64,000 nucleotides of DNA from a virus. The stretch's first letter is position 1. The number at the start of each line of letters is the position of its first letter. The notes below the pieces were generated by a model that saw only the letters and a program-made list of their open reading frames with translations, was not told the DNA's origin and did not search any database. This document shows, in pieces, positions 17,853 to 62,942 of the stretch. Where the stretch lies: the IMG/VR virus record IMGVR_UViG_3300045988_159685. The stretch is one strand, 5' to 3'. The position numbers and the translations under genes are program-made.

Positions 17853-17876
17853 TGCACAATTCCTCCTTAAATAGAA

Positions 17877-29906: not shown

Positions 29907-29960
29907 TACAATTCTCCTTTCTATTAATATTATGTAATGTGAATAATGCAAAAAAATTGA

Positions 29961-31477: not shown

Positions 31478-31640
31478 CATCCTCCCCCGACCTATAGAGG
31501 TCGGAGCTTCCTCCTGCAAGATTTGCAGGCAGTCGGTTCTCGTTCGAGCAGTCCATTGACTACAGCATAAGCGAGCTATCCCCGTGTGTCCCACGGTTCT
31601 ATTGGATTTGGCTATGCGAAAGCTATTCGCATGCCTTCAT
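31478..31640 (-). ncRNA. Putative TnpB omega (re)RNA scaffold at the element's right end
   Basis: The GC-rich, hairpin-dense segment overlapping and following the tnpB 3' end (CCGTGGGACACACGG, CTGCAAATCTTGCAG, CCGACCTCTATAGGTCGG on the minus strand) sits where omega RNAs are encoded. Confidence 0.55.
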
Positions 31641-32751: not shown

Positions 32752-32872
32752 TCTTTGCCACCTCCTTATTATGATTATATCATTTTGAACTCTTTTTAGC
32801 AAACTTTAGAGACGCAATCCATCCCTCACCTATAGAGGTGAGGGTATTCTTGCTTCGGTTTGATAAAAGTTA

Positions 32873-34345: not shown

Positions 34346-35146
34346 TTATCTTGCCCTATTAATTCTCTGTCGGGCTACTGTAATAATATAATCAAAAGAC
34401 GGCATTGGTTTGAGTTTAAACTCATTTTTCTTATGAAGATTATCTATCTTCGACTTGATTTCTGCCTTGGGCAGAACCCCATATCGTATATATTTATCCA
34501 AAGTATCGTAACTAAATCCAAGGTTATCTTCATCCGTCTTCCCACACAAACCATCAGAAGGAGTTTTCTCAATAAATTTCTCAGGTAAACCAAGAAAGCG
34601 ACCTATTGATTTTACTTCTTGCACTGTAAACTTCGCAAGCGGTGCCATGTCCCCTGCTCCATCGCCATACCTTGTGGCATAACCAATATAATCCTCAGAA
34701 TAATTGCAAGTATTAATAACACGCCCACCGACTGTCTGCGATACAGCATAAAGTGTAGCCATACGCAAACGTGCTGGCAGATTTATTGTTGTTTGTTCAC
34801 TAAGGGTAGTCTCAAGGGCGTCACTGATTTTTGCTATAGCAGTATCATAAACTGATTCAATATTTATTGTTACATTATTAATACCGAGAAACTCGCAGAG
34901 TTCATTAGCATAGTTGATATCTGCCTGTTCTCCGTTTGGCATAAGCACGCCGAACACTCTTTCTTTACCAAGTGCTTTAACGCAGAGTGCTGCGACAACA
35001 GATGAGTCTTTTCCGCCAGATATTCCAATAACGGCTTTGCAACCATTTCCATTGTTCTCAAACCAATCTCTAATCCATTCAACACACATCTCTGCTGCCA
35101 CGTAAGAATTAAAATCCAGATTATAATTATCGTCATTATAACTCAT
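34346..35146 (-). CDS. nadE: NAD+ synthetase (NadE, ATP-pyrophosphatase family)
   Basis: PP-loop GISGGKDSSVVAALC; size and layout fit ammonia-dependent NadE. Confidence 0.85.
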   Translation of the reverse strand: MSYNDDNYNLDFNSYVAAEMCVEWIRDWFENNGNGCKAVIGISGGKDSSVVAALCVKALGKERVFGVLMPNGEQADINYANELCEFLGINNVTINIESVYDTAIAKISDALETTLSEQTTINLPARLRMATLYAVSQTVGGRVINTCNYSEDYIGYATRYGDGAGDMAPLAKFTVQEVKSIGRFLGLPEKFIEKTPSDGLCGKTDEDNLGFSYDTLDKYIRYGVLPKAEIKSKIDNLHKKNEFKLKPMPSFDYIITVARQRINRAR

Positions 35147-35164
35147 AAAAACACCTCGCTTAGA

Positions 35165-36643
35165 TTAGAAATTATTATTGTGGAGTCTGTTGCGGATATT
35201 AGCAAGTGAGTCATCAATAAGCAATTCGCTATTTCTGAATATTGCCTTTAACTCTTGTTTACTATTACAGGAAACTTCTTTCCAAGTATATTCGTCCTTA
35301 TAACAGAGCTCGCCGTTATCGTCTTTATAAACAAGACAACAACCCTTTTGTGATTTCTTAAATCCACCCTCTTTTGGATTTTTGAATATAGGATATGGCT
35401 TATGATCGATTTCACAGTATGTTGCCTTAATACAAGAACTAAAGGTATCTCTTGTAAATGGTTTAAGTATTCCATCTTCTTCTACGCACTGAAATGAAAA
35501 TGAGCCAACGCCAAGTGCAACATTGCTAGCCGCAAAGCCGTTATCCTTTAAAATTTCATATATCCTTTCACAACGCTGGATAGTAATTGAGTCACCATAA
35601 ATAGCCTTTACATGAGGGTCAAGAACTTTGTATCCCTTACTATTAATTGTGCCACCAAATTCATCCCAAAGTTTAAACACTGTTTTAGTTACAACTTCTA
35701 TGCAATCACCTGAATCGCCACGCATAAGCATGCAACCATTGTGCGCCATAATCTCTGGTTTTATTTGTGGCAAAACGTTATCAATGACATTCCAATAATC
35801 ATATGAATCAAGGACAGCAGAAAAACTTGTATCAGGATAAATCTCGGTCAATAATCTTTTAAGCAACGTAACTTCGTCACCATCAACCGCATAATTTGAA
35901 CACATAACTGCATGTTCGGTAGAGGGCGAACCAAATGCTACAGGCTCTTTGGTACAATCGCAATTATAAAGCTTTTCAAGATATGGTATGACAGGGACTG
36001 TTGCTGTATTTACAAAACTCAGACACCAACCAGCCGCCGCTTTAATAGCAGAATCCGTACATTCTTCACCTCTAAAGTCAAAAGAACCTAGAGCTTTGTT
36101 TCGTGACACACTATCATCACAGGTTTCATCGTAGAACTTATTTACGATATCACGATAAGTTGCACCCACCGTTGCGGCAAGCATTGGATGCCAAGCCTCG
36201 GCTGATATAAGCGATTCAAGAGCCTGCGGTAGCCATGCAAAATCGTCATGCGTATTAGTTATGCAAAACATCGGAACGTGCATTGGAACCTTTGTTCCTT
36301 CTGGTAATGCCCATATCTCAATTGGGAGATAGCCAAGGGCATGCAGGTCTTTTATTTTCTGCAAGCCATATACGCCCTTACCAAGTGAAGCATCCATAAT
36401 ACGCTCATATTCCGAAATGACTTCGTCTATAGGGCGTTCAAAAAATCTTTCATTAAAGTAATCTATCAAATAGGTTTTTACAAAGCCCTGAAGTCCGAAC
36501 ATCACGACTTTGTTCCACATCCTTACACGACTCATTCGTGGCGTAAAATATGAAACGGATTTTGTTATCTTAGTCGGCAACATCTCAGCATGAACCGCTT
36601 TATAAAAATCAATAAGTAGCATTGGGTTTATATTATATAACAT
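35165..36643 (-). CDS. Nicotinamide/nicotinate phosphoribosyltransferase-family protein (NAMPT/NadV-like; possible Namat)
   Basis: N-terminal NPMLLIDFYKAVHAEM. 492 aa, typical of the NAMPT/NAPRT fold family. Adjacent to a Prs-like gene. Confidence 0.8.
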   Translation of the reverse strand: MLYNINPMLLIDFYKAVHAEMLPTKITKSVSYFTPRMSRVRMWNKVVMFGLQGFVKTYLIDYFNERFFERPIDEVISEYERIMDASLGKGVYGLQKIKDLHALGYLPIEIWALPEGTKVPMHVPMFCITNTHDDFAWLPQALESLISAEAWHPMLAATVGATYRDIVNKFYDETCDDSVSRNKALGSFDFRGEECTDSAIKAAAGWCLSFVNTATVPVIPYLEKLYNCDCTKEPVAFGSPSTEHAVMCSNYAVDGDEVTLLKRLLTEIYPDTSFSAVLDSYDYWNVIDNVLPQIKPEIMAHNGCMLMRGDSGDCIEVVTKTVFKLWDEFGGTINSKGYKVLDPHVKAIYGDSITIQRCERIYEILKDNGFAASNVALGVGSFSFQCVEEDGILKPFTRDTFSSCIKATYCEIDHKPYPIFKNPKEGGFKKSQKGCCLVYKDDNGELCYKDEYTWKEVSCNSKQELKAIFRNSELLIDDSLANIRNRLHNNNF

Positions 36644-36660
36644 AACTTGTCACCTCCAAA

Positions 36661-37512
36661 TTAAAACATATCGAAAATCTCAATTTTGTCTGCGTTTACT
36701 TCAAGTCCATCGGCACCAATCTTCTTGCGGTAAATACTATTGGTAGAGAAAACCTTTTTGATAAGCCCGCTCTTAATCATGTCGCCGTCGTGTACCGAAT
36801 TTTCAAGATGTGAAACGTATAAATAAATGTCGCCAACACCATACTCTTTTAGAGCTTTTGCACTATAATAGAAAGTTCCGCCCCTAGAACAAATATCATC
36901 AACAATTAATACGTTTCTACCTTTTAATGTGTCTGTATTACCCATGATGCTTAATCCATTAATGGTTCCAGTTTTCCAATCCCTATTTTTCATACCGAAT
37001 ACATAAGGCACTTCAAGAATACTAGATATGAATGAATAACGTTTCATTGCGCCTTCGTCTGGGAAAAATAAAATAAGATCTTTCCTAGAAATCTTTTCGT
37101 CAATAATATTATCCCTCAAAATGCCAGCCGGTGAAGAATCTCTGATATTGTTTATTAGAGCCGCTCCAACGTTTGAATGAATGTCAAGTGTAAATACTTT
37201 TCTAAACTCCATATTATTGATTAGATTTGCAAATGTTTTGAGCGTAAACATTTCAAACGCTTTTTGTGTACGATCCATGCGAGCATTAGGAACATATGGC
37301 ATATTCAGATTAATGTTACAAAAGCCCTTGCTCTTTAACCAATCGACACAGCAAGCTAACTGAAATATCTCCGAATCATTGTCGTAAAGCCAAGTTATGT
37401 CTATAGGTGCTGAAACCCCATATCCAATGAGTTCCGCAATGCTATAGGTCAGTTTACACGTTCCATCAGGAAATTTAATAATATTAATTGGTTTAGAATC
37501 AATAGAAATCAT
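36661..37512 (-). CDS. Ribose-phosphate pyrophosphokinase-like protein (Prs-like; possible Adps)
   Basis: FTLDIHSNVGA (DxHS-type) and the PRPP-loop NVLIVDDICSRGGTF. Confidence 0.75.
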   Translation of the reverse strand: MISIDSKPINIIKFPDGTCKLTYSIAELIGYGVSAPIDITWLYDNDSEIFQLACCVDWLKSKGFCNINLNMPYVPNARMDRTQKAFEMFTLKTFANLINNMEFRKVFTLDIHSNVGAALINNIRDSSPAGILRDNIIDEKISRKDLILFFPDEGAMKRYSFISSILEVPYVFGMKNRDWKTGTINGLSIMGNTDTLKGRNVLIVDDICSRGGTFYYSAKALKEYGVGDIYLYVSHLENSVHDGDMIKSGLIKKVFSTNSIYRKKIGADGLEVNADKIEIFDMF

Positions 37513-37524
37513 AGAATCCTCCTA

Positions 37525-38049
37525 TTATATAATGTTAATTTGACAACTTTTTGCTACCGTTAAAGCCGCCTGCTTCGCTTCGGGTGTTGTGCCTGCTGTA
37601 GCATTTTCGATTATATTAATCTTCATTTCGGGAAACCGTGTTTTTAGAATTAAGGCATTTGTAATCACGCAGATATCAGTGCAAAGTCCAACCAAATCGA
37701 CTTCGTCGTAGTTATCCTCAACTAACTTAGTGGCAATATTAAATGTACCAAATGTCGGCTTATTAATAACATCACATGGTATATTGCTTTCAATAGAAGC
37801 GACAGCTATATCATCATGTATTTTCCAACCATTGGTGCCTCTTATACAATGTTCGATAGGTAAATTTTTGCCCTCCTGTGTATCAAGATAATCTTTGCTA
37901 TGGGTGTCTCGTGTAAAAAATATCGCCGCATAGTCGGAACTTTGTATAAGCTTTGCAACATTTGGAACAATAGCTTGGGCTTCCCTAGTTCCCAAACTGC
38001 CATTAATAAAATCATTCTGCATATCAATAACTATTAATGCTTTTTTCAT
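37525..38049 (-). CDS. pncA: Nicotinamidase / isochorismatase-family hydrolase
   Basis: ALIVIDMQNDF, TRDTH, LVGLCTDICV (catalytic Cys). Confidence 0.78.
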   Translation of the reverse strand: MKKALIVIDMQNDFINGSLGTREAQAIVPNVAKLIQSSDYAAIFFTRDTHSKDYLDTQEGKNLPIEHCIRGTNGWKIHDDIAVASIESNIPCDVINKPTFGTFNIATKLVEDNYDEVDLVGLCTDICVITNALILKTRFPEMKINIIENATAGTTPEAKQAALTVAKSCQINII

Positions 38050-38186
38050 ATGTAAACCTCTTTTCTCATTCACTTCATATAATATAAAATAAGTCCATCT
38101 AGGTGCTTACAAGGGTTTTCTTCTTGCCTTTAGCGGTACATTCGATCTTATATAGTTTTATCATTTTTTTATTTCTCCTAAAAAAA

Positions 38187-48085: not shown

Positions 48086-48160
48086 TGGTGACTCGTGCAG
48101 GAATTGCACCTACGATTCCATCCTGAGAAGATAGCGTCTTAACTACTTGACCAACGAGCC
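48086..48160 (-). tRNA. tRNA-Glu-like, anticodon CUC (copy A; atypical T-loop UGCAAUU)
   Basis: Minus strand: GGCTCGT TG GTC AAGTAGTTAA GAC G CTATC TTCTCAG GATGG AATC GTAGG TGCAATT CCTGC ACGAGTC A CCA. Same architecture as Firmicutes tRNA-Glu (3-bp D stem). Confidence 0.7.
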
Positions 48161-48243
48161 ATAAGCCCATAAGGGCTTTTTAATACTATGGGATTATTGG
48201 AGGTGAAGAACCATAGTATGTATCAGGAATTACCCTCGCGCTG

Positions 48244-48319
48244 TGGCTGGAGTGGCTGGACTCGAACCAGCGGAATGACGGAGTCAAAGTCCGTTGCCTT
48301 ACCTCTTGGCTACACTCCA
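48244..48319 (-). tRNA. tRNA-Gln (UUG)
   Basis: TGGAGTG TA GCC AAGAGGTAA GGC A ACGGA CTTTGAC TCCGT .. GCTGG TTCGAGT CCAGC CACTCCA G CCA. Close to Bacillus tRNA-Gln. Confidence 0.85.
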
Positions 48320-48345
48320 ATATAGCCCGTAAAAGCGGGCATTTT

Positions 48346-48618
48346 TTACAACTTTTTACCATCAAGGGTTTCGAACATATATTCCGTCCAAGCCCAACAC
48401 GTGATTTCATTCAACGTATATTCGCCTGTATCTCCATATCCTCTATCCTGAATCTCCGTTATACTGTGAATTTCTCCACAATATATATACATTGATGGGT
48501 TAAAACTTAAATATGAATTTTTGGGGCGTAATGGTTCATCTTCTTGATTGTTGTAACTATATTCGCAAAGCAGGTCTTTTTTACGCCTTATTCTGACTTC
48601 ATTGCCGATTTTTAGCAT
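48346..48618 (-). CDS. GDKVRIRRxKDLxCE family paralogue
   Basis: MLKIGNEVRIRRKKDLLCEY...EYMFETLDGKKL. ATG at 48618 follows GGAGGTG. Confidence 0.6.
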   Translation of the reverse strand: MLKIGNEVRIRRKKDLLCEYSYNNQEDEPLRPKNSYLSFNPSMYIYCGEIHSITEIQDRGYGDTGEYTLNEITCWAWTEYMFETLDGKKL

Positions 48619-49150
48619 TATGCACACCTCCAATTTTGTATGGAATCTGAGTTACTCCAAGTTTTTTTGCGGCAATGTATCTGGCATAGCCGTCTTTCAA
48701 AATTTTGTTGCCCTTAGCATCAAGCTTTATAGTTATGGGGTTATCGAAAATTCCATAATATTTATAGAAACAGATAGCCCTGTCCACCTTTTCTTTCTTT
48801 GGCGGATGATTCATAAAGTCTCTGGGTATGTACACTTTATCTACATCTATGAGCTTTTTGAAGTTGCTCATAAAAGCGGGGCGACTAATGTTTACAACTA
48901 TCGCATTTATAGTTGCTACGCCATCACGCTTGGAGATTTCGTAATCTCTTCGACCTGTAATCAAAGAATATGTATCACGGGAATTTCGCCGCACAATTAC
49001 AACGAGGTTGTCTTTTGTGCCGAGTTTTTCAGTGTCGATACTCTTCTTGTGTACACTATCTGTCAGCATGATGTTCCTAACTGGTATAGGAATCGCCTGC
49101 GCCGCCATTCTTGACCTGAAATTTTTTATATTGTTAAAACAGTACGCCAT
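48599..49150 (-). CDS. ParB/Sulfiredoxin-like nuclease-domain protein
   Basis: C-terminal KILKDGYARYIAAKKLGVTQIPYKI (DGxxR-type ParB N-domain motif). An N-terminal segment YSLITGRRDYEISKRDGVATINAIVV looks like a second copy. Confidence 0.55.
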   Translation of the reverse strand: MAYCFNNIKNFRSRMAAQAIPIPVRNIMLTDSVHKKSIDTEKLGTKDNLVVIVRRNSRDTYSLITGRRDYEISKRDGVATINAIVVNISRPAFMSNFKKLIDVDKVYIPRDFMNHPPKKEKVDRAICFYKYYGIFDNPITIKLDAKGNKILKDGYARYIAAKKLGVTQIPYKIGGVHNAKNRQ

Positions 49151-49179
49151 AATTTCTACCTCCTATTTTTTATAATGGC

Positions 49180-49255
49180 TGGTGTGCCATTCGGGATTTG
49201 AACCCGAGACCTTTCGATTAAAAGTCGAATGCTCTACCAATTGAGCTAATGGCAC
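49180..49255 (-). tRNA. tRNA-Lys (UUU), copy 1
   Basis: GTGCCAT TA GCTC AATTGGTA GAGC A TTCGA CTTTTAA TCGAA AGGTC TCGGG TTCAAAT CCCGA ATGGCAC A CCA. Confidence 0.88.
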
Positions 49256-49615
49256 ATAGACCGCCGTGGCGGTCAGCATTGTAACCCATGGTTACACAGA
49301 TTACAATTTAATTACAAAGTGGTGACATAATTCAATCGACCGTGTTACTTAAATGTAACTCGCAAGCTTTTTAGCTTGCATTTGAATAAAAAAAATAACG
49401 ACGGATTAACCAAAGTTGACCCGTCGTTAAATATATAAAATGGACACTTTTCAGCCTTGTGGATAACCTACGGTCAAGTTATGACGCACCTTAACCAAAC
49501 TCAAGGGTTTTGTAAAATCTTAATTGTTGTGCTTTAAGATTTAAGCTTTAGACGATTATAAGCTTTGAACTTTCGTAATTAAATTTTCAGCTTTATGCCT
49601 TAAGCTTTATCTTAT

Positions 49616-49657
49616 TACTCGTACAGGAATTGAACCTGTAATGCAACCAGTCGAGCA
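49616..49657 (-). other. tRNA-derived acceptor/T-arm minihelix-like fragment (no D or anticodon arm, no CCA)
   Basis: Minus strand: TGCTCG-ACTGGTTGCATT-ACAGG TTCAATT CCTGT-A-CGAGTA. The 3' half resembles the tRNA-Glu-like copies. Confidence 0.4.
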
Positions 49658-49819
49658 ACAAAACATTCCCACAAAAAAGGAATATCATATATCTTCGTAT
49701 AGACTACGATAGCTATTACTTATATTTGAGGCCAGATTTTTATTATTTTACTTTGTGAATATAGCCTAAAACACAAAGGTCATAAAATTAAAGGTTTTCA
49801 AAAAGCACCCATTTTTTGC

Positions 49820-50461
49820 TTAGTACGAAATTTCGATTTCGGTTATAGCGTTCGATACGCTGATAGCCGAGTCAAAATCAATCTTAAACTTGTCTATACG
49901 ATCGACAAGGTCAGAAATGATTTCGGCAGTGTCAAAACCCTCGATAATTTCAAAAGTGTTCGCCTTTATGAAATTGGTTTTCGCCTCCTCTATTTCCTTT
50001 GTAACAGCTTTACCGTCTTTTGAACCAAACATTCCAAGTACATACTCATCGGCACGCCCCTGTAATGTTTCGCCGTTCTCATAATTACATCTGTCCTGTG
50101 CAGCTTTAAGCTGTTTAGACATATGCTTCAAAAGATCTTCCTCAAATTCAATGCCGTGATTCTTATACTCTATAGCCTCGGCAATAGTCAGTTTCATACC
50201 CTGTATTGTGACTTCGGTCTCGGCATTTGAAAGCGTAACGGCACGCTTAATTGCCTTACGCCTTTTTATAAGGTCGGCTATTTTGTCATAGCTCGCCTTG
50301 AAGCCATTCTTAGCTTCTTCAATAGAGACGCCATTTATCTTTGTGTTGCTATGTTTGTTCTCAACCACAAATTTTGCATCTTTGATAAGGGCGGGTATCC
50401 TCTTATCGAGAATCTTAAGCTCACAAAGTGCCTGATGAATCGTCATTTTTTCGTTAGTCAT
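49820..50461 (-). CDS. Hypothetical protein (213 aa, helical)
   Basis: Clean ORF between tRNA-like elements. Confidence 0.55.
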   Translation of the reverse strand: MTNEKMTIHQALCELKILDKRIPALIKDAKFVVENKHSNTKINGVSIEEAKNGFKASYDKIADLIKRRKAIKRAVTLSNAETEVTIQGMKLTIAEAIEYKNHGIEFEEDLLKHMSKQLKAAQDRCNYENGETLQGRADEYVLGMFGSKDGKAVTKEIEEAKTNFIKANTFEIIEGFDTAEIISDLVDRIDKFKIDFDSAISVSNAITEIEISY

Positions 50462-50515
50462 TTCAAAAACTCCTTTGAATTTTAAAATTTACAGACCTGA
50501 TTATGCCTGTATTGA

Positions 50516-50575
50516 TGGTGGCTCACACAGGATTTACACCTGTACTCTCACTGGGGATAAGAGTCTATTTGAGCC
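50516..50575 (-). pseudogene. 60-nt truncated tRNA-like element ending in CCA (D arm absent)
   Basis: GGCTCAA ATAG ACTCTTA TCCCCAG TGAGAGT ACAGG TGTAAAT CCTGT GTGAGCC A CCA. The acceptor pairs at 6 of 7 positions. The loop has C at position 33. Confidence 0.45.
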
Positions 50576-50628
50576 ATAGCGATGCAAAGCATCGCACTCA
50601 GAAAAAGAAGGGAATGCCCAAAACGGGC

Positions 50629-50704
50629 TGGTGACTCACGCAGGATTTGAACCATGCAATTCCGCCCTGAGAAGGCGGCGTCTTAACCGTTTGACCAGTG
50701 AGCC
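50629..50704 (-). tRNA. tRNA-Glu-like, anticodon CUC (copy B; one unpaired base in the T stem)
   Basis: GGCTCAC TG GTC AAACGGTTAA GAC G CCGCC TTCTCAG GGCGG AATT GCA(T)GG TTCAAAT CCTGC GTGAGTC A CCA. Confidence 0.6.
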
Positions 50705-50728
50705 ATAAGGCGGAGAACTCCGCCTATA

Positions 50729-51673
50729 TTACTTTTCTTTAAAGGTTGGCGAACAGCTCTCAAAGAATTCTTTTACGTTGACATTGTATTTCTCAAGAAT
50801 CGCAACGATAACTTTTTGTACCTTGTCCCATTCGTCATCTTTGATATACTGAATATACGGTGTCTTGCGATTGCCACGCTTTTTGAGGTCAATCCCGTAG
50901 CGATAACTAAGCTGCTTATATAGCATACTGAAAGCCACGCCGAAACTGATATGCAAAGTCGAAGCAAACTTACGCATAACTCTGTTGAACATTTTGCGGT
51001 CTGAAATATGTAAGACCTCGGCTGTTAAAAGCTTGTTTGACGTTTCAATTCTGTCGATATGACGCCGCTGAAACGCCGTGTAAGCCTGGGCGGCTGTCGC
51101 AAATTCCATGATATCACCCGTGGCAAAAGCCTTGCCGATTGCCGCTTGGAGCTTTTCTTCGTCGTCGATATCTTGCGTGAGAAGTTCGGGCTTTTCCTCG
51201 GCGGTGTGTTCGACAATGTTTAGGAGCTGTGTCCTGACCTCTTGGGCTATCTTGCTATCACGAAGAAGCATGCCTATTCTGAGGATGGCACGCTTTGAGA
51301 AACACTTGATGCCTCGGTTTGGGATTTCAAGGTGGGTATTATCGTCGATTTGGATAACAAGTTTGCCGTTTTGTTGCTCAAAATTCTTAAAGGTACAACT
51401 TGTACCTTTAAGAATTTCTTTAAAGATTGTAGGCGTTTTAGTTGCAACGCCATCACCCTCAATCTCAGTGCGGTTTCGCTGACAACAACGCTTTATAGTA
51501 TCAATATCAACCTCATAATAATCCGCCACCTGCCTAATAGTCATACAGTTCATCTCAGGTATCAAAAGCAGCTTCTTAACCTTATCAAGAACCTCAGTTC
51601 TGGCAATAAGCTCGTTTCTGAGGTCATGGTTGTCTACCATGCTTTCGCTCGTGATGATTTTACTTTCTGGCAT
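50729..51673 (-). CDS. HTH DNA-binding regulatory protein (phage antirepressor/Rha-like layout)
   Basis: N-terminal MTIRQVADYYEVDIDTIKRCCQRNRTEI HTH. The C-terminal helical domain resembles phage regulatory/antirepressor C-domains. Its own palindromic motif recurs upstream. Confidence 0.5.
   Translation of the reverse strand: MPESKIITSESMVDNHDLRNELIARTEVLDKVKKLLLIPEMNCMTIRQVADYYEVDIDTIKRCCQRNRTEIEGDGVATKTPTIFKEILKGTSCTFKNFEQQNGKLVIQIDDNTHLEIPNRGIKCFSKRAILRIGMLLRDSKIAQEVRTQLLNIVEHTAEEKPELLTQDIDDEEKLQAAIGKAFATGDIMEFATAAQAYTAFQRRHIDRIETSNKLLTAEVLHISDRKMFNRVMRKFASTLHISFGVAFSMLYKQLSYRYGIDLKKRGNRKTPYIQYIKDDEWDKVQKVIVAILEKYNVNVKEFFESCSPTFKEK
51381..51417. promoter_or_regulatory. 37-bp perfect palindrome (operator-like O1) inside the HTH gene
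   Basis: AAATTCTTAAAGGTACAA-C-TTGTACCTTTAAGAATTT. Confidence 0.7.
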
Positions 51674-51729
51674 AATTTCACCTCCTCTTGTAAAACAAAT
51701 TGAACATCTTGCTTAGTTAGTAACCTAAA

Positions 51730-51760
51730 TTCTTAACGGAACAAGTTGTTCCTTTAAGAA
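51730..51760. promoter_or_regulatory. Operator-like palindrome O2 upstream of the HTH gene
   Basis: TTCTTAACGGAACA-AGT-TGTTCCTTTAAGAA, one mismatch from perfect symmetry and the same consensus as O1. Confidence 0.65.
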
Positions 51761-51775
51761 ATATCCATCTTTAAT

Positions 51776-51798
51776 GGGATAAGTTGTTCCTTTAAAAG
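51776..51798. promoter_or_regulatory. Degenerate operator-like site O3 (good right half only)
   Basis: GGGATA-AGT-TGTTCCTTTAAAAG. Confidence 0.4.
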
Positions 51799-51842
51799 CA
51801 CTTGAATAGAGTTTAGACTTTTTTGCTATAATGCCATTTGAA

Positions 51843-51867
51843 CTAACGGAACATCTTGTTCCTTTAG
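51843..51867. promoter_or_regulatory. Operator-like palindrome O4
   Basis: CTAACGGAACA-TCT-TGTTCCTTTAG. Confidence 0.6.
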
Positions 51868-52074
51868 TAATTTTTAAAGATATTAAACTTACCTCTGCCT
51901 AACATTTAAGACTTATAATAACCGCAATCACCGTTATAATCAGATTAAGCAGTGCGCCGATCCACAGTGGTGATACCACCCAAAGCCAACTCCAGCATAT
52001 AACTTTAGTCAGTTTCAGTATGATAAATACGATAGTAAGCAGTCCGCAAAAACCAATTCCGCCGCTCTTCATAA

Positions 52075-52308
52075 TTATTCTCCCTCCCTTACAATATGAA
52101 ATTTATCCACGCCGTAAATAACGCCAAGTGAGCGCCCATTGTCAAAATTGCAATGAATCGTACCAGCGTCATCGACATGATCAACCGTTCCAAGCGTATT
52201 CGGCTCAACTGGGTATGGATCATCAACCATTTTCTCAAGGCATATTCTTGTACCCTCGGGGAAAACTCTTTTGAGCCAAGATATCCTCTTGTCATTGTAT
52301 AAACTCAT
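52075..52308 (-). CDS. DUF4314-like protein
   Basis: FPEGTRICLEKMVDDPYPVEPNTLGTVDHVDDAGTIHCNFDNGRSLGV matches the remembered DUF4314 pattern (G..v.l..M.Dp.p...G..GtV..vDd.GtihV.wDnG..L). Confidence 0.55.
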   Translation of the reverse strand: MSLYNDKRISWLKRVFPEGTRICLEKMVDDPYPVEPNTLGTVDHVDDAGTIHCNFDNGRSLGVIYGVDKFHIVREGE

Positions 52309-52646
52309 ACCTTGCCTCTTTCAAACTCAATAACACCGCCATCGGCATCAACGACAACTGGGCGAATTGATAGGATATTTCTTGTGAATAAAAACGCACA
52401 GGCTAATGGCACGGCAATAACCGCACTCTCGGGCATAGCTATAGCCATAACGCCCATAGCAAAGCCGAGAACTTTCTGCATAATCCACAACACTTTGGCT
52501 GCTTTTCTTTCAAGTCTGCGGCTTTTATAGCTTTCTATGCGCTTTTTAAGCTCTCTTTCTTCTTTGTCACGTTCTTCTGCGTGTTTCATAGATCTGATTA
52601 ACTTTGTCAGGTCGTATGTATTATGTACGTTTTCAAAAGCGTCCAT
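52305..52646 (-). CDS. Hypothetical membrane protein
   Basis: Charged helical N-terminus, then two TM helices. Confidence 0.5.
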   Translation of the reverse strand: MDAFENVHNTYDLTKLIRSMKHAEERDKEERELKKRIESYKSRRLERKAAKVLWIMQKVLGFAMGVMAIAMPESAVIAVPLACAFLFTRNILSIRPVVVDADGGVIEFERGKV

Positions 52647-52719
52647 AAAAACACCTCCATTTTAAAATAATAATAATGATTTTCTGATTACGCCTGAAAA
52701 TCACCATAAAATCTGGCGT

Positions 52720-52795
52720 TGGTGCGACTTATGGGGCTTGAACCCATGACCTCCGCATTAAAAGTGCGTTGCTCTACTAACTGAGCTAAAGCCGC
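52720..52795 (-). tRNA. tRNA-Lys (UUU), copy 2 (sequence-divergent from copy 1)
   Basis: GCGGCTT TA GCTC AGTTAGTA GAGC A ACGCA CTTTTAA TGCGG AGGTC ATGGG TTCAAGC CCCAT AAGTCGC A CCA. Confidence 0.85.
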
Positions 52796-52888
52796 AAGCG
52801 CAGGCATCACACTACATTCCCATATGGTGGGATAAGCACTGTACCTGCTATGCCAATTTTCTTTTTGTGTAGCATTGGCAAACTACAC

Positions 52889-52975
52889 TGGTGCCGCTGA
52901 CGAGACTTGAACTCGTAAGGATTTTACTCCGAGGGTTTTTAAGACCCTTGTGTATGCCTATTCCACCACAGCGGC
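52889..52975 (-). tRNA. tRNA-Leu (UAA), type II with long variable arm
   Basis: GCCGCTG TG GTGGAATAGGCATACAC A AGGGT CTTAAAA ACCCT (long variable arm) ACGAG TTCAAGT CTCGT CAGCGGC A CCA. Confidence 0.85.
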
Positions 52976-53085
52976 TTGTCTTGCCCACAACCCACAGAAG
53001 GCAAGTAATGTACGGCTCATCCGTACTTCCCTACGTATTCAGCGACTGATGCCACCGATGCGCGTCTAAGGACTGCGACGTCCTT

Positions 53086-53160
53086 TGGTGACTCGTGCAG
53101 GATTCAAACCTACGACTCCGCTCTGAGAAAGCGGTATCTTAATCACTTGACCAACGAGCC
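53086..53160 (-). tRNA. tRNA-Glu-like, anticodon CUC (copy C; T-loop UUUGAAU)
   Basis: GGCTCGT TG GTC AAGTGATTAA GAT A CCGCT TTCTCAG AGCGG AGTC GTAGG TTTGAAT CCTGC ACGAGTC A CCA. Confidence 0.7.
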
Positions 53161-53458
53161 ATAAGGCGGCTTTTGACCGCCTACTGAATAAAAAGAAAGG
53201 AATTTTAAATCAATGCTAATATCTAACTTATGTAACCCTCTACACGAGGGCTGGCACAATAAGCATAATTCACCACCTCCGTTCCTACTCATACCAGCCG
53301 AGCCCAATATTTCAATATCACCTAAGCCTTGCAATAAACCGCAGTAATAGACTTTTAGCGGGTTATGCCGTACTTAGACGCCGCAAATTATTTAACGTGG
53401 CTTGCGGTTACCACTTACTCAAATGAGCATATCAACTACCTCTTTTCAAAAAAACTTG

Positions 53459-54685: not shown

Positions 54686-55435
54686 CTAAGCCTTTACTGG
54701 CTCAGCTTTTGTTGCTTCTGGCTCGGCTTTTGCCGTCTTTTTAGCTGTCTTTTTGGCCGGCTTTTTGGCTGGCTCGGCTGGCTTATCAGCCTGTGAGTCT
54801 GCAAGTTTCTTATATGTTTCAGTGGCGTCATCAAGAACCGCCTGTTTGATGGAGTTTTTGGCATAACCGAGAGCACACTCTGTCTTGCTCTCACCAAAAT
54901 TCAACTCCTTAAAGCAGAAGTTAATAAACTGATATACGCTTACAGGCTTGACAGTCCAGCCCTCAGCAATAGCCTCTCTGTTGGATCTGGCGTATTTAAA
55001 GCAGTGTGCCTCTAATGTATCTATATCTGTAGACTTGCAGTTGACTTTTACACCGAGCCATGTTTTGAGGGCTTTAAGCTCATCAAAACACTCAGACTTT
55101 GAGTCTGTCATAGCCTTAATATCGTCAGCATCTCCAGACTCCGCAGCACGGCGCTTGCAAAGTCCATAGATGGCAAGTCGTGTCTGTAGAGCTTTGAACG
55201 GTTTAAGCCAGCCCTTAAAAGTATCACTGTCGATGTCAGGTGAAAAAAGCGACTTTGAAAATGATATAGCAAAACCAAAGCCCTCAAGTACAGAGTACAT
55301 TGTGCGTATAGACTTAATATTAAGCCTCTTAATGTAGCTCTTGATGTTGTCGATCTGCTCACTTGTTGTTGCTATGACCTCTACACCGTCGCCTGTTTTT
55401 GACTCCACGAGTCTGTAATTTTCCAAAATGTTCAT
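54686..55435 (-). CDS. Hypothetical protein with histone-H1-like Lys/Ala/Pro-rich tail
   Basis: C-terminal ..DKPAEPAKKPAKKTAKKTAKAEPEATKAEPVKA. ATG at 55435 follows GGAGGG. Confidence 0.55.
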   Translation of the reverse strand: MNILENYRLVESKTGDGVEVIATTSEQIDNIKSYIKRLNIKSIRTMYSVLEGFGFAISFSKSLFSPDIDSDTFKGWLKPFKALQTRLAIYGLCKRRAAESGDADDIKAMTDSKSECFDELKALKTWLGVKVNCKSTDIDTLEAHCFKYARSNREAIAEGWTVKPVSVYQFINFCFKELNFGESKTECALGYAKNSIKQAVLDDATETYKKLADSQADKPAEPAKKPAKKTAKKTAKAEPEATKAEPVKA

Positions 55436-55634
55436 AATAGAACCCTCCAATAAAATTTAATTTTTGAGCTTTAAAGCCCTATTCAAGCCCACGAGCGACT
55501 ACTCATGAGCTTTATATAAAGCTTTAAACCGCCTTGCTTAATTCAAGACAGCTCAAAGAATTAGCCTACTTTTTTTGTGATTGAATTGTACGGCAAGCTT
55601 GCGTACTGCAAAGGCATACAGTTACCTTTACTCC

Positions 55635-56603: not shown

Positions 56604-56632
56604 TTGACATTTAGCCAAAAATGGTGTATAAT
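56604..56632 (+). promoter_or_regulatory. Consensus sigma-A-type promoter for the small recombinase gene
   Basis: TTGACA - 17 nt - TATAAT, about 50 nt upstream of the AAAGGAG RBS and the ATG at 56685. Confidence 0.75.
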
Positions 56633-58044: not shown

Positions 58045-60768
58045 ATGGCATTAAACAAATTATACTATGTGTACGGACTTGATACTGCGTGCCTTTATAC
58101 ACCAGAGGAAAGTGCTATTGAACAAAAAATTATCAAGGCACGTTGCCTTCGAGCTACGCTCAAAGACAGAATTGCCAAACAAAAGATAACCCCTTGTCTT
58201 TGTAAAGGTAAAAAAACTATAGCAAACAAAGACAACAAAGCCCCATACGTTGGAAAACATCAGAAGCGTCTGCGTTTTCTCAACGATTACATAGCCAGTC
58301 ATAAAGCATTACTTAAGCAGGAGCTTGCCAAAAATGTATCACTCACACGAACCGTGATACCTGACAAGCTCAATATACGTCGCCAGATTTCAATATTTGG
58401 CTCTTCCCTTACAAGATATTTCAACCTAAAGGAAAGAGAGCTTAATGAAGAAATCGTGATTGTAAAAGTTTACTTCTTCGATGTCGCCAAGAGCATTGTG
58501 AAGAACGGCTTTTACATGAATGGTCACAAATACGTTTTCTTCTCAAGTAGTGCGGGGCAAATCAGAACCAAAAAGCTCGTGGCCGTTCGTGAAGATTTAC
58601 TCAACAAGTATTGGAACGCATTGACGGCAGGCTTGACAATTGAAAAGATTAATGAGCAAGGCGGCATGAATGTAAATAAATTTCTTGCCTACCTTGCTCT
58701 TTGTAATTCAGCTACTGATTTATGGTGTGACTTCAACATTGACGAGTGTATTGTAGTTGACGACTTTGAAACGCTTGTGCATGGTACGGTTGACTTTATA
58801 GACGATAAGACCTATAGGATTGAAAGACAAGAAATGAATATACCGATCACGCACACCGATGGCTGTGGAATGATACTTCCAGAACTGAGTACAAAAAATT
58901 TCATGACAAGATTGCCATGGGTCAAAGGTCTGCTAGCAAGTTTTGACTTTGTGAAGTTTATCAAGGATAATAATTGCGACCCCGTGATTACTGACGTCTA
59001 CGGCGATAAGCATAATATCCTTGAGGAAAATATCAAAATCATATTTACCAAGAGTCAGTTCAAAATGTGGAAATATTATTCAAACTGGGGTGAATATAAA
59101 AACAACTTCAAGAAATATGGAAGCACCGCAGGCAAGTGTAACATAGAAGAAGGATATATCCCATATGCAACGATCAACTACCAAATGATACAGACACTAA
59201 TTGATACCACTGACAATGAGATAGCCGCACTTGCTCGTAAGAGCATGAACGATATTCGCAATCTCGCAACCGATAAAGCAACAATGCTCAAGGTTTTCGG
59301 AGCTACAAGCTACAACAAAAATATGAACGGCTTTCAAAAATGTCTTAAGTTATATCCCGAGCTTTTATCAGACCCATATTCTCGTGCCGCCCTTAAAGAC
59401 ATCAAACATAGCCTTGAGACAGATCAGTGGGCGGCCAAATTCAAAACAAGCGGTAAATACACGTTTGTTGTTCCAGACCTTTATGCGTTCTGTGAATATT
59501 TATTCTTACATATATCAAATCCTAAAGGACTTTTAAGCAACGGTGAAGTAAGTTGCAAACTGTTCAAAGATAATATTGAGCTTGATTGTTTACGTTCGCC
59601 GCACCTCTACATCGAACATGCCATAAGAACAAATCGTCATGTTGACAGTTGGTTTAATACAGATGCAATCTATACAAGTTGTGCCGACTGTATATCGAAA
59701 GTTTTGCAGTTCGACAACGACGGTGATAAACTATTGGTGATTCCAGATGAAACACTAATAAACCTTGCTAAACGAAACTTGCAAAAGTATGACATAGTAC
59801 CGCTCTTCTATAACATGGCTAAGGCGGGGGCAAAAGAACTTACTCCCGATAGCCTGTATGATGGATTAATATGTGCCTACACTGGTGGCAATATTGGCGA
59901 AATAAGCAACGCCATTACCAAGGTTTGGAATAGCGGAGTAATCGACCAAGAAAAAATCAATGTTGTTAAATGGCTTTGTATGGAAAATAACTTCGTCATA
60001 GACTACGCCAAGACCTTGTATAAACCCGTTCGTCCTGATTGGGTAAACGAAATTATTTCTAAGCACGTCAAGAGCAGAGTTCCACATTTCTTTCAATATG
60101 CTAAAGGCAAAGAAACCAATCAAGTAGAAGAAAGAGGTTTAAACACGGTTGACAGAATTAAGTCGTTGACCCCTATACAAAAGCTTAACTTTAATTTTAA
60201 GAACGACAATGTTGGAAAGTTTGATTATAGATTTCTGCTAAAAAACAAAGAAATTGAAGTCGATGAGAATGTGCTTCAACGCTTTAGGGATATATCAAGC
60301 AATCTAAGGTTTTGTGACTCAGATGGAACGGCACTTAACTACCAAGCCGTATACGATCAAGCGAAAGAAGAAATGCTTATGCTCGGTCATAACATTGACG
60401 ATGTTGTAGATATGCTTGTAGAGGATTTATTTCACAGTAGACGTGTTGAAAAGAAAAAAGCATTTTGGGAAATGTTTGGCGAAGTTGTGTACGAACATTT
60501 GTCGAACAATTTATCACAAAATTATATCCAGTGTGCTCACTGTCAGAAAAGATTTTATCGTGAAAACTCGAAACAAATTTACTGCAACAAATGTCAAAAC
60601 AAGAAGTCCATCAAAGCAAATACCAAGATTCTTCAATGTGCAGGTTGCGGCAAAACCATAACAGTAAGTACAAGATGTCATCGTGAAGCCTACTGCCCTG
60701 AGTGTAAAATTCATGCAAGAAATGCGGCAAGACTGAGGGCGTATTATAAAAATAAGCATCTTGTGTAG
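58045..60768 (+). CDS. YonO-like single-subunit two-barrel RNA polymerase candidate (RdRP-related family) with C-terminal zinc ribbons
   Basis: 907 aa. YVFFSSSAGQIRTKKL (RdRP/YonO-type SxxQxR block), LRSPHLYIEH, QFDNDGDKLLVIPD (DxDGD metal loop). C-terminal CAHC..CNKC..CAGC..CPEC. An HU gene lies nearby, as with yonN-yonO in SPbeta. Confidence 0.55.
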   Translation: MALNKLYYVYGLDTACLYTPEESAIEQKIIKARCLRATLKDRIAKQKITPCLCKGKKTIANKDNKAPYVGKHQKRLRFLNDYIASHKALLKQELAKNVSLTRTVIPDKLNIRRQISIFGSSLTRYFNLKERELNEEIVIVKVYFFDVAKSIVKNGFYMNGHKYVFFSSSAGQIRTKKLVAVREDLLNKYWNALTAGLTIEKINEQGGMNVNKFLAYLALCNSATDLWCDFNIDECIVVDDFETLVHGTVDFIDDKTYRIERQEMNIPITHTDGCGMILPELSTKNFMTRLPWVKGLLASFDFVKFIKDNNCDPVITDVYGDKHNILEENIKIIFTKSQFKMWKYYSNWGEYKNNFKKYGSTAGKCNIEEGYIPYATINYQMIQTLIDTTDNEIAALARKSMNDIRNLATDKATMLKVFGATSYNKNMNGFQKCLKLYPELLSDPYSRAALKDIKHSLETDQWAAKFKTSGKYTFVVPDLYAFCEYLFLHISNPKGLLSNGEVSCKLFKDNIELDCLRSPHLYIEHAIRTNRHVDSWFNTDAIYTSCADCISKVLQFDNDGDKLLVIPDETLINLAKRNLQKYDIVPLFYNMAKAGAKELTPDSLYDGLICAYTGGNIGEISNAITKVWNSGVIDQEKINVVKWLCMENNFVIDYAKTLYKPVRPDWVNEIISKHVKSRVPHFFQYAKGKETNQVEERGLNTVDRIKSLTPIQKLNFNFKNDNVGKFDYRFLLKNKEIEVDENVLQRFRDISSNLRFCDSDGTALNYQAVYDQAKEEMLMLGHNIDDVVDMLVEDLFHSRRVEKKKAFWEMFGEVVYEHLSNNLSQNYIQCAHCQKRFYRENSKQIYCNKCQNKKSIKANTKILQCAGCGKTITVSTRCHREAYCPECKIHARNAARLRAYYKNKHLV

Positions 60769-62866: not shown

Positions 62867-62942
62867 TGCGGAGTAGAGAAAAGGTATCTCGCTTGTTTCA
62901 TAGGCAAGAGATTATTGGTTCGAGTCCAATCTCACGCAACCA
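62867..62942 (+). tRNA. tRNA-Met(CAU)-like gene with a bulged acceptor stem (possible pseudogene or att-associated copy)
   Basis: TGCGGAG TA GAGA AAAGGTA TCTC G CTTGT TTCATAG GCAAG AGATT ATTGG TTCGAGT CCAAT CTC(A)CGCA A CCA. D, anticodon and T arms fold. The acceptor needs one bulged A. Confidence 0.45.

Follow-up and report, generated by a model that had tools for sequence, protein, structure and literature searches.

The tRNA island of this phage belongs to a known kind: in our reading, at about even odds (roughly 0.5), it adds decoding capacity through functional elongator tRNAs, including Glu(CUC) for bulk virion synthesis, and its three Glu(CUC) genes are the one incompletely explained feature. 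The window (the whole analysed stretch of 64,000 nucleotides, record IMGVR_UViG_3300045988_159685) is an SPbeta-like temperate prophage integrated in Hominimerdicola aceti, which corresponds to 'Ruminococcus bicirculans', a bacterium common in the human gut. Prophage sequence meets host DNA at about window position 55, the GlgB gene in the flank shares 99% identity with its H. aceti counterpart, and GC content is 36.4% in the window against 43% in the host flank. With Bacillus phage SPbeta the prophage shares a YonO-type RNA polymerase, YonJ, YonG, YonD and YonB family genes, a DnaE-type polymerase (43–53% identity to the nearest phage relatives) and a large, temperate, siphovirus-like character; unlike SPbeta, it resides in a gut Oscillospiraceae species. 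The island occupies the leftward, non-structural arm, where an NAD-salvage cluster of counter-defence type is also found.

The initial annotation had placed seven full-length tRNA genes here, and ARAGORN returns exactly seven, all on the minus strand and at the same coordinates. The set consists of three Glu(CUC), two Lys(UUU), one Gln(UUG) and one Leu(UAA), each also matched by Rfam RF00005 at 49–78 bits (gathering score 29; E-values 1e-7 to 1e-15):

53086..53160, minus strand: tRNA-Glu(CUC) copy 1; 53.7 bits (Rfam) and ARAGORN; anticodon loop UUCUCAG; CCA encoded
52889..52975, minus strand: tRNA-Leu(UAA); 55.4 bits and ARAGORN; class II with long variable arm; loop CUUAAAA
52720..52795, minus strand: tRNA-Lys(UUU) copy 2; 68.3 bits and ARAGORN; loop CUUUUAA
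50629..50704, minus strand: tRNA-Glu(CUC) copy 2; 53.4 bits and ARAGORN; loop UUCUCAG
49180..49255, minus strand: tRNA-Lys(UUU) copy 1; 78.5 bits, the top Rfam score of the seven, and ARAGORN; fully canonical
48244..48319, minus strand: tRNA-Gln(UUG); 62.9 bits and ARAGORN; anticodon arm ACGGA-CUUUGAC-UCCGU
48086..48160, minus strand: tRNA-Glu(CUC) copy 3; 49.1 bits and ARAGORN; loop UUCUCAG

From both program calls, the CCA encoded in all seven genes, the pairing and the invariant anticodons, the island tRNAs look functional. More than 25 related contigs from gut metagenomes have kept them; across 28 related loci the anticodons do not vary and the Lys and Leu stems carry compensatory changes. 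Among the Glu paralogues and their relatives, 99.6% of the cloverleaf is paired, and 15 of 21 pairs have changed on both sides, against a shuffle mean of 6.5. The Lys and Glu duplicates are divergent, as first described, with pairwise identities of 74% and 78–79%, respectively. All three Glu copies are retained in every relative, while Leu(UAA) is absent from some (L002, L004, L115). The D loop of Lys copy 2 reads GUUAGUA in this strain versus GUUGGUA in most relatives. A search of about 30 kb of late genes that lie past the window revealed no additional tRNA.

The tRNAs are indeed scattered among protein genes, seven of which, all conserved, lie between them on the minus strand (48346..52646). 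They are interspersed with hairpins, operator-like palindromes and two tRNA-like remnants:

53164-53182, 52980-53005, 50708-50725, 49259-49274, 48325-48340 and 48163-48178, minus strand: GC-rich hairpins 5′ of tRNAs
52305-52646, minus strand: gene for a 113 aa protein
52075-52308, minus strand: DUF4314 gene
51899-52072, minus strand: gene for a 57 aa protein
51727..51870, unstranded: three operator-like 34-nt palindromes upstream of the 314 aa gene
50729-51673, minus strand: 314 aa, anti-repressor-like gene, matching PADLOC PDC-M59A
50515..50575, minus strand: Glu-derived tRNA-like element without D arm; acceptor stem, 7–8 bp hairpin (loop UCCCCAG), T arm and CCA
49820-50461, minus strand: 213 aa gene, phrog_1491
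49612..49656, minus strand: second Glu-derived remnant; acceptor and T-arm minihelix without CCA
48599-49150, minus strand: ParB_N-like gene
48346-48633, minus strand: gene for a 95 aa protein

At six of the seven tRNAs the hairpin stops 2–5 nt short of the 5′ end (dG −9 to −12 kcal/mol), and several tRNAs have further hairpins directly 3′. These flanking hairpins are kept in relatives, with a compensatory change in the one after Leu. Because hairpins bracket each gene, the tRNAs are probably released from transcripts by RNase P and 3′ processing enzymes of the host; charging by host synthetases would then enlarge the host tRNA pool during phage development. The palindromes, a fourth of which lies inside the 314 aa gene (51381-51414), suggest a putative internal regulated promoter within the island.

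Relative to the host, as represented by 6,278 codons from flanking genes only, the phage uses AAA at 58.0 instead of 30.9 per 1000 (1.9x, the largest excess of any codon), UUA at 19.4 instead of 2.5 (7.6x) and CAA at 15.2 instead of 5.3 (2.9x); by excess over the host, these rank first, second and fourth among purine-ending codons. Codon bias thus strongly explains the Lys, Leu and Gln tRNAs, as the initial annotation had anticipated for AAA, CAA and UUA, and two Lys(UUU), Gln(UUG) and Leu(UAA) would add capacity for exactly these codons.

Glu is different. Under standard wobble rules, tRNA-Glu(CUC) reads GAG only and cannot read GAA, which accounts for 68% of the Glu codons in the phage. Across the phage genome GAG is rarer than in the host flank (22.6 versus 33.5 per 1000), where it is among the most frequent codons. 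Genome-wide bias thus leaves Glu(CUC) unexplained and predicts instead Glu(UUC), which is indeed present in a sister lineage. The claim that codon usage leaves the Glu copies unexplained therefore stands for the genome as a whole but is weakened by the virion genes. The major capsid gene, identified by the HK97 fold of its 331-aa late product, and two genes in its neighbourhood for putative high-copy virion proteins (putatively scaffold and tail tube) together use GAG 34 times and GAA 12 times, whereas the remaining late genes use GAA at 57.7 and GAG at 23.7 per 1000. This preference gives Glu(CUC) a partial codon-supply rationale, and added GAG decoding for bulk virion synthesis would be the most economical role for the three copies. 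Several observations qualify it. GAG reaches 31.4 per 1000 over the initial 10 kb of late genes, not above the host level, and other codons, such as ACA, GGU and GUU, are more enriched than GAG in the three virion genes. The same genes equally favour AAG (43 to 10) and CAG (21 to 0), but the tRNAs present are Lys(UUU) and Gln(UUG), not the C34 isoacceptors, which counts against supply. Gut phages in general favour G-ending codons in genes of this capsid family, which suggests that hosts already supply C34 tRNAs well.

The syntenic site in 40 more distant relatives holds broad sets of mostly U34 tRNAs for A-ending codons, and one sister group carries Lys UUU, Gln UUG, Leu UAA, Leu CAA and Glu UUC. 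The GAG share of Glu codons is highest in the group resembling the window (0.37), versus 0.26 in the Glu(UUC) group. The classical codon-compensating model, as it is cited in PMC10264068, fits the Lys(UUU), Gln(UUG) and Leu(UAA) genes and the mainly U34 tRNAs of relatives; three Glu(CUC) genes reading a codon depleted across the phage genome do not fit.

The three Glu copies are also unusual in structure. All have C34, with U32 and G38 in the anticodon loop, whereas C32 with C38 or A38 is found in 54 of the 55 other Firmicute-type Glu(CUC) genes compared; one probably cellular Glu(CUC) gene (L241) shares the loop UUCUCAG, and copy 2 has CUCUCAG in relatives L009 and L011. In copy 1 the elbow pair 19:56 is A-U and not G-C, in copy 2 an additional U bulges out of the 5′ strand of the T stem, and copy 3 combines the T loop UGCAAUU (G55) with A18 in the D loop. 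A pure supply model does not predict the U32/G38 loop or the altered elbow and T-arm nucleotides, nor does it account for C34 in Glu only or for three divergent copies. Because of C34, these genes fall outside the modified-wobble-U class, to which the initial annotation had assigned all seven tRNAs; nucleases requiring xm5s2U34 therefore cannot use the Glu copies as substrates.

The alternative proposed initially, a replacement kit against host defence, is possible though doubtful. Here a putative anticodon nuclease of the host or a competitor would cut tRNAs with U-rich anticodons during infection, and the phage would replenish them, with Lys, Gln and Leu as extra copies and a Glu decoder of non-substrate anticodon and loop; candidates are PrrC/RloC-like, PARIS-like or collateral HEPN nucleases such as Cas13d. 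Its codon premise holds, and the U32/G38 loop, the near-invariant elbow nucleotides altered in two Glu copies, the bulged T stem of copy 2, the retention of all three divergent copies where Leu is dispensable, C33 in tRNA-Lys(UUU) of a sister lineage and the NAD-salvage cluster in the same arm favour it circumstantially. However, Glu(CUC) cannot read GAA and so is no substitute for a cleaved tRNA-Glu(UUC), Lys, Gln and Leu have canonical and still U-rich anticodon loops (CUUUUAA, CUUUGAC, CUUAAAA), the C32U change itself puts a UU dinucleotide into the Glu loop, the L241 loop is identical, and more distant relatives carry broad sets for A-ending codons. The pattern is moreover confounded with codon bias, because an AT-rich phage also needs U-rich anticodons. 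In T4, cleaved host tRNA is repaired by Pnk and Rnl1. As in T4 with its PrrC, polynucleotide kinase and RNA ligase, tRNA-Lys(UUU) is at stake here; unlike T4, this window yielded no Pnk/Rnl1-type gene in a search for RNA ligase, PNK and RtcB.

Known systems place this alternative more closely. In the phage T5 cluster, which acts against PARIS (AriB) and retron Ec78 (PMC11464382, PMC12409363, PMC11555353), phage tRNAs including Lys(UUU) likewise add to or replace host tRNAs, and in both cases several may be needed together. T5 encodes about 24 tRNAs for most amino acids, against four anticodons here; its tRNA-Lys is substituted at the AriB cut site (U39A, A41C), whereas the island Lys loop is canonical; and its rescue is shown experimentally, whereas the island, in a Clostridium-class host, is known from sequence. 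Mycobacteriophage tRNAs carry loop substitutions flanking the anticodon (van den Berg et al. 2023, eLife, PMC10264068), as do the three Glu copies with U32/G38. In that work the host tRNAs and nuclease targets used for comparison were known, while our comparison used Firmicute-type genes; in the island only Glu deviates, and its anticodon differs from the codon-bias prediction. Collateral targets of Cas13a and Cas13d have U-rich anticodons (Lys UUU, Glu UUC, Gln UUG, Leu) and match the island's four amino acids (PMC11042736; bioRxiv 10.64898/2025.12.03.690598), the same four whose tRNAs suffer most from LshCas13a in E. coli (PMC11042736). Cas13d occurs naturally in ruminococci, and RfxCas13d, from a Ruminococcus, cuts U^U within anticodons (bioRxiv 10.64898/2025.12.03.690598), a dinucleotide missing from CUC. 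The host species corresponds to 'R. bicirculans' (PMC9723785), in which Cas13d homologues are reported (PMC9307479). In E. coli, however, overexpressing the four tRNAs failed to relieve Cas13a toxicity (PMC11042736). The Cas13 link to this host comes from the literature only. We know of no phage tRNA shown to counter Cas13.

It is improbable that the tRNAs, Glu(CUC) above all, are kept by selection on lysogens, whose GAG capacity they would raise, and not on phage development. The host's heavy use of GAG is consistent with such a benefit, as are the integrated state of the prophage, its wide distribution in human gut assemblies and the internal operator-like sites, which suggest regulated, not purely lytic, expression; the other four tRNAs, however, read host-rare codons (TTA 2.5, CAA 5.3 per 1000), and the representative H. 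aceti genome is without the prophage.

Least probable is a non-decoding role, in which tRNA and tRNA-like units serve as processing punctuation for mRNA ends, recombination joints for cassette exchange or decoys for tRNA-binding host factors: the flanking hairpins, the two conserved remnants unable to decode, the non-canonical Glu elbows and T arms, and spacing and gene content that vary among close relatives (for example, Lys copy 2 and Glu copy 2 are 0.5 to 2.6 kb apart) would suit it, but processing or recombination would leave anticodons unconstrained, whereas they are strictly conserved and of four species only, three of which match the phage codon excess, and compensatory change maintains full cloverleaves with encoded CCA.

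Of the two remnants, the element at 50515-50575 has a minimum free energy of −21.9 kcal/mol (z = −4.8) and is kept in all 24 relatives checked. An eighth tRNA-like gene lies outside the island, 9.7 kb away and after the HU gene:

62868..62938, plus strand: tRNA-like gene with anticodon CAU (Met or Ile2); Rfam 48.8 bits, rejected by ARAGORN

It has one bulged base in the acceptor stem and is identical in three related loci (L113-L115).

As proposed in the initial annotation, ARAGORN calls seven tRNA genes in the 64-kb window, all on the minus strand, and every one matches the Rfam covariance model RF00005 (7/7, 49.1–78.5 bits; gathering score 29).

Island tRNA genes, each found by ARAGORN and Rfam
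48086-48160, minus strand, tRNA-Glu(CUC) copy 3
48244-48319, minus strand, tRNA-Gln(UUG)
49180-49255, minus strand, tRNA-Lys(UUU) copy 1
50629-50704, minus strand, tRNA-Glu(CUC) copy 2
52720-52795, minus strand, tRNA-Lys(UUU) copy 2
52889-52975, minus strand, tRNA-Leu(UAA)
53086-53160, minus strand, tRNA-Glu(CUC) copy 1

The CCA end is encoded in all seven genes. The duplicates are divergent, as had been noted, with pairwise identities of 78–79% among the Glu copies and 74% between the Lys copies, and are therefore old; the scattering of the tRNAs among protein genes is likewise borne out by seven interspersed ORFs that are also called in related contigs. Assignment of the whole set to the modified-wobble-U class stands for the two Lys, the Gln and the Leu tRNAs, which have U34, and falls for the three Glu tRNAs, which lie outside that class because of a C34 (U32-U33-C34-U35-C36-A37-G38) that is constant across relatives. 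The elbow set G18, G19, U55 and C56 is kept in Glu copy 2, Lys copy 1, Gln and Leu, and the D loop of Lys copy 2 reads GUUAGUA in this strain as against GUUGGUA in most relatives. Glu copy 1 has A19-U56 in place of the G19-C56 elbow pair, with both sides changed, the T stem of Glu copy 2 contains a bulged U, and Glu copy 3 has A18 and G55, at positions where G18 and U55 are near-invariant in tRNAs. Stop-codon recoding and suppressor tRNAs are both out, since table 11 gives long ORFs and none of the anticodons pairs with a stop codon.

The 213-aa protein encoded within the island matches 14 IMG/VR contigs and 10 ENA or Logan contigs at 93–100% identity, and the content and order of the tRNA genes are the same in those relatives that cover the region, with no anticodon variation among close relatives. 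The Leu tRNA is missing from three relatives (L002, L004 and L115), and the Glu, Lys and Gln genes are found in every relative covering the region. Compensatory changes among close relatives affect the Lys acceptor stem (GTGCCAT/ATGGCAC versus GTGTCAT/ATGACAC) and the Leu anticodon stem (AGGGT/ACCCT versus AGGGA/TCCCT). When the window's Glu paralogues and their variants are aligned with three outgroup tRNA-Glu genes, pairing in the cloverleaf reaches 99.6%. Both sides have changed in 15 of the 21 pairs, a result matched by 0 of 500 shuffles. With constant anticodons, compensatory stems and both-side pair changes, the island genes are under selection both to keep a tRNA fold and to keep their anticodons.

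An alignment-based search of more distant relatives adds 40 loci at 34–50% identity, whose syntenic site holds tRNAs that are mostly U34 readers for A-ending codons (Gln UUG 23, Leu UAA 19, Lys UUU 15, Glu UUC 9, Thr UGU 8, Ile UAU 7, Leu UAG 6, Ser UGA 4), together with Leu CAA (19), Met CAU (6), Ser GCU (4) and Asn GUU (3). One sister group carries Lys UUU, Gln UUG, Leu CAA, Leu UAA and Glu UUC, and in the last of these the loop, CUUUCAC, is canonical. A theme of Lys, Gln, Leu and Glu therefore predates the window's lineage, and the switch to CUC in three copies is, to judge from these loci, specific to that lineage. A sister lineage (L154, L156, L157 and related loci, at about 7347-7422) has a tRNA-Lys(UUU) with C33 in a CCUUUAA loop; U33 is near-universal, and the position adjoins the bond cut by PrrC-type nucleases.

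The window is a prophage with a defined integrase and host junction. Over positions 1-11465 it matches, at 100% identity, the terminal part of a locus on a 365-kb contig from human gut, and this contig runs on past the integrase (260-1465) into the cellular genes GlgB, GalT and YfhO. At 99% identity, the flanking GlgB matches the protein of Hominimerdicola aceti Sanger_31 (Oscillospiraceae), a strain equated with 'Ruminococcus bicirculans' in the species description (PMC9723785). The 213-aa island protein has no match in species-representative genomes; the prophage is therefore absent from the representative H. aceti genome, where the integration site is empty. Integration into a tRNA gene, as in tRNA-dependent lysogeny (PMC10865867), is out, as the junction and att site contain no tRNA. 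GC content is 36.4% in the window versus 43% in the host flank. No tRNA gene lies in 10 kb of host flank or in a 21.8-kb H. aceti locus, and 79 other genome loci hold only two irrelevant ones. A GenBank phage search for near-identical phages returns tRNA-sized fragments only, and the phage is absent from that collection. By its sequence the phage is SPbeta-like and temperate, in a gut Oscillospiraceae host, and it encodes an RNA polymerase with the fold of eukaryotic RNA-dependent RNA polymerases (PF05183).

58045-60768, plus strand, YonO-type single-subunit RNA polymerase, 907 aa (PF05183)

This polymerase is followed by YonJ, HU, a second and a third integrase-like gene, and then the YonG, terminase, portal, YonD and YonB families (YonJ, YonG, YonD and YonB at 10501-20279 of the related locus L113). 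The DnaE polymerase shares 53% identity with its counterpart in a Clostridioides phage-plasmid, and positions 56604-56632 (plus strand) hold a promoter in perfect agreement with the sigma-70 consensus.

For codon usage, 84 window ORFs (17,221 codons) were set against 6,278 codons from ORFs in the H. aceti locus.

Codon frequencies per 1000 codons in host and phage
AAA: host 30.9, phage 58.0 (1.9x, the top absolute excess among all codons)
TTA: host 2.5, phage 19.4 (7.6-fold)
CAA: host 5.3, phage 15.2 (2.9-fold)
GAA: host 34.1, phage 48.4
GAG: host 33.5, phage 22.6 (depleted, 0.68x)

Among purine-ending codons, which are those able to have their own tRNA, the codons read by the phage U34 tRNAs hold excess ranks 1, 2 and 4. 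GAA is rank 3, so codon bias predicts a Glu(UUC) tRNA. The earlier remark that bias fits AAA, CAA and UUA and not GAG can thus be put in numbers (1.9x, 2.9x and 7.6x versus 0.68x). GAG makes up 50% of Glu codons in the host and 32% in the phage, and it reaches 31.4 per 1000 in the first 10 kb of late genes. Across phage groups its share is highest in the window-like group (0.37), with 0.26 in the Glu(UUC) group and 0.19–0.33 elsewhere, which hints weakly at co-adaptation. A 254-aa ORF with a TTG start (54686-55450, minus strand) has 17 GAG and 3 GAA codons; it lies in the 41–42% GC stretch (50–56 kb) that holds the upstream part of the island, and has no family match in Pfam, PHROGs or PADLOC.

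The 30 kb past the window, read from a related 90-kb contig (L263 coordinates below), contain no further tRNAs. Late-gene codon usage there is bimodal, and three genes that nearly always avoid AAA, GAA, CAA, UUA and UUG are set apart.

L263 9483-9977, 164-aa gene
L263 10001-10996, 331-aa YonB-family gene, HK97-fold capsid
L263 14667-15479, 270-aa 'virion structural protein' gene, followed downstream by two small ORFs and the tape-measure gene

Codon use in the three virion genes (counts) and in other late genes (per 1000)
GAG/GAA: 34/12; other late genes 23.7/57.7
AAG/AAA: 43/10; other late genes 31.9/69.2
CAG/CAA: 21/0; other late genes 10.5/21.8
TTA, TTG: 0, 0; other late genes 21.8, 12.2

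Third-position GC is 0.37 in these genes versus 0.32 in the other late genes, a small difference which indicates that the shift is specific to these codon pairs and no general GC shift. Sequence searches gave the 331-aa protein no name; its structural model (mean pLDDT 73.6) matches HK97-fold capsid proteins with probability 1.00 in a fold search, which identifies it as the major capsid protein. Gene order alone suggests a scaffold and a tail tube for the 164-aa and 270-aa genes. In the capsid gene and its two neighbouring virion genes GAG accounts for 74% of Glu codons and is thus the Glu codon of the most abundantly made proteins, which gives tRNA-Glu(CUC) a plausible job. Among 65 capsid-gene homologues from other gut phages the medians are 0.78 for GAG, 0.96 for AAG and 1.0 for CAG; the G-ending preference looks like ordinary high-expression adaptation to host-preferred codons. 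Contigs retrieved by the capsid protein and contigs retrieved by the island protein form two non-overlapping sets. GAG use in capsid genes does not explain why the phage lacks Lys(CUU) and Gln(CUG).

The evidence best supports a supply of decoding capacity by the island, an account to which we assign a probability of about 0.5. Supply is clear for AAA, CAA and UUA, and plausible but incomplete for GAG in bulk virion synthesis. Phage tRNA clusters are already known, and the Glu(CUC) feature of this one is explained in part only; if the Glu copies are simple GAG supplements for the capsid, the island represents ordinary, well-documented codon compensation. Whether phage tRNA genes are codon supplements or counter-defence tools is currently debated. 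This widespread prophage, from a ruminococcus that is dominant in the human gut, allows the two readings to be told apart: codon bias is tracked closely by four tRNAs, and not by the three divergent, structurally odd tRNA-Glu(CUC).

That the island is instead a counter-defence tRNA kit is unlikely. Phage tRNAs can evade tRNA nucleases or replenish the pool after them, as described for T5 against PARIS and against retron Ec78 (PMC11464382, PMC12409363, PMC11555353), and mycobacteriophage loop variants are a further example (PMC10264068). The initial annotation had cast the set as replacements for tRNAs cleaved by host defence; in that form the proposal fails, because tRNA-Glu(CUC), with C34, is no wobble-U tRNA and cannot stand in for tRNA-Glu(UUC). 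What speaks for a counter-defence role is the Glu anticodon loop, which is UUCUCAG in 3 of 3 copies and appears atypical: an IMG/VR scan for Firmicute-type Glu(CUC) genes outside this phage group yields 55, with CUCUCAC in 44, CUCUCAA in 10 and UUCUCAG in one. This single match (locus L241) looks cellular and probably is, so the loop is rare yet not exclusive to phages, and both this gene and the canonical anticodon loops of the island's Lys, Gln and Leu tRNAs weigh against the kit. The bodies of the Glu copies share G1-C72, G2-U71, A73, U11-A24 and a 4-nt variable region with aligned sister-phage and cellular Firmicute tRNA-Glu, features that presumably fit Firmicute tRNA-Glu generally. Among the 55 comparison genes 25 lie at most 200 nt from a locus edge, often with Lys(CUU) or Gln(CUG) adjacent; such edge genes are probably cellular ones flanking prophages, and integration at tRNA-Glu(CUC) thus appears to be common in gut Firmicutes. 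Predicted gut prophages in IMG/VR often end at such a tRNA (L170, L175, L207, L204, L217 and others).

PHROGs and Pfam reveal no RNA ligase, polynucleotide kinase or RtcB among window ORFs of at least 150 aa and the smaller island ORFs, which sets the scanned ORFs apart from T4-type tRNA repair; for a few ORFs of 150 aa or more within the first 7.9 kb, coverage comes from the precomputed Pfam annotation of the same DNA (L029), which has no RNA-repair family. No CCA-adding enzyme was found in the window, PADLOC reports no tRNA nuclease among ten scanned proteins near the island, and known defence or anti-defence tRNA nucleases were not found in the window; the host DNA read amounts to 22 kb. 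Two further loci deserve mention.

29490-29951, minus strand, MazF/PemK-family (EndoA-like) toxin, closest to Bacillus subtilis EndoA (E = 1e-16)
34346-38073, minus strand, NAD cluster with NadE, NAMPT, PRPP-synthetase-like and isochorismatase-family (nicotinamidase-like) genes

The toxin was considered as a tRNA nuclease and rejected, as EndoA is deposited as an mRNA interferase and the protein matches no MazF described as tRNA-cleaving. The NAD cluster, which we take to resemble phage pathways restoring NAD+ against NAD-depleting defence, may be a lead towards counter-defence in the island's arm.

A more specific proposal, which we regard as improbable, is that the island and phage codon choice act jointly, as the two parts of one escape from an anticodon nuclease that is U-specific and belongs natively to the host lineage. 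The best candidate would be Cas13d collateral activity, cutting U^U within anticodons: RfxCas13d makes this cut (bioRxiv 10.64898/2025.12.03.690598), and Cas13d homologues are reported in R. bicirculans (PMC9307479). LshCas13a cuts Lys(UUU), Glu(UUC), Gln(UUG) and Thr(UGU), with Lys, Gln, Glu and Leu most strongly affected and no rescue of growth by overexpression (PMC11042736). The amino-acid set shared by the island and the Cas13a-affected tRNAs is striking, and is confounded because an AT-rich phage needs U-rich anticodons anyway. Under the two-part proposal, bulk-translated genes (major capsid, putative scaffold and tail tube) almost wholly avoid AAA, GAA, CAA and UUA, extra cleavable Lys, Gln and Leu tRNAs would serve the AT-rich phage genes, and GAG would be read by three UU-free, loop-altered tRNA-Glu(CUC) copies that the nuclease could not cut. 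If true, no natural phage tRNA set before this one would have been shown to counter CRISPR type VI. Since the host species is reported with Cas13d, which was recently found to cleave U-rich anticodons, phage and host offer a natural, culturable pair for the question of whether phage tRNAs can soften Cas13 collateral damage. A benefit of the island to the lysogen is very unlikely, and non-decoding roles of its tRNAs rank last.

Further tRNA-like elements occur in and near the island.

62868-62938, plus strand, eighth tRNA-like gene, anticodon CAU (Met or Ile2), Rfam 48.8 bits
50515-50575, minus strand, Glu-derived tRNA-like element without D arm, with CCA (MFE -21.9 kcal/mol, z = -4.8)
49612-49656, minus strand, Glu-derived remnant, acceptor and T-arm minihelix, conserved in relatives

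The CAU gene has one bulged base in its acceptor stem and no ARAGORN call; its neighbours are the HU gene on one side and an integrase-like gene on the other, and L113-L115 carry the same sequence unchanged. The two Glu-derived remnants flank the 213-aa gene and are both kept in relatives, and the stems of the larger one stay paired despite substitutions among 24 relatives. A GC-rich hairpin precedes 6 of the 7 island tRNAs, ending 2–5 nt from the mature 5′ end (48163-53182, minus strand), and a second hairpin lies 3′ of several; the one after the Leu tRNA shows a compensatory change in relatives. None of these flanking hairpins is a canonical minus-strand terminator; possible roles are to mark sites of processing or to shield mRNA ends. 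A 34-nt palindrome (core GGAACAAGTTGTTCC) occurs four times (51381-51414, 51727-51760, 51765-51798 and 51837-51870), upstream of and inside the 314-aa anti-repressor-like gene in mid-island, and the copies look like operator sites.

Mobile and modification genes elsewhere in the window are listed below.

31612-32802, minus strand, transposase-family gene, 396 aa (phrog_506)
26489-27316, minus strand, LAGLIDADG endonuclease
13251-14096, minus strand, D12-class adenine methyltransferase
16525-17238, minus strand, D12-class adenine methyltransferase

The anaerobic ribonucleotide reductase NrdD is spread over three minus-strand ORFs (5494-6150, 4109-4633 and 2838-3806; same DNA in L029 and L030), and Rfam, at its gathering threshold, finds no intron family there. 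One copy of this DNA (L030) includes an HNH_3 ORF call, which together with the split of NrdD suggests introns or homing-endonuclease insertions.
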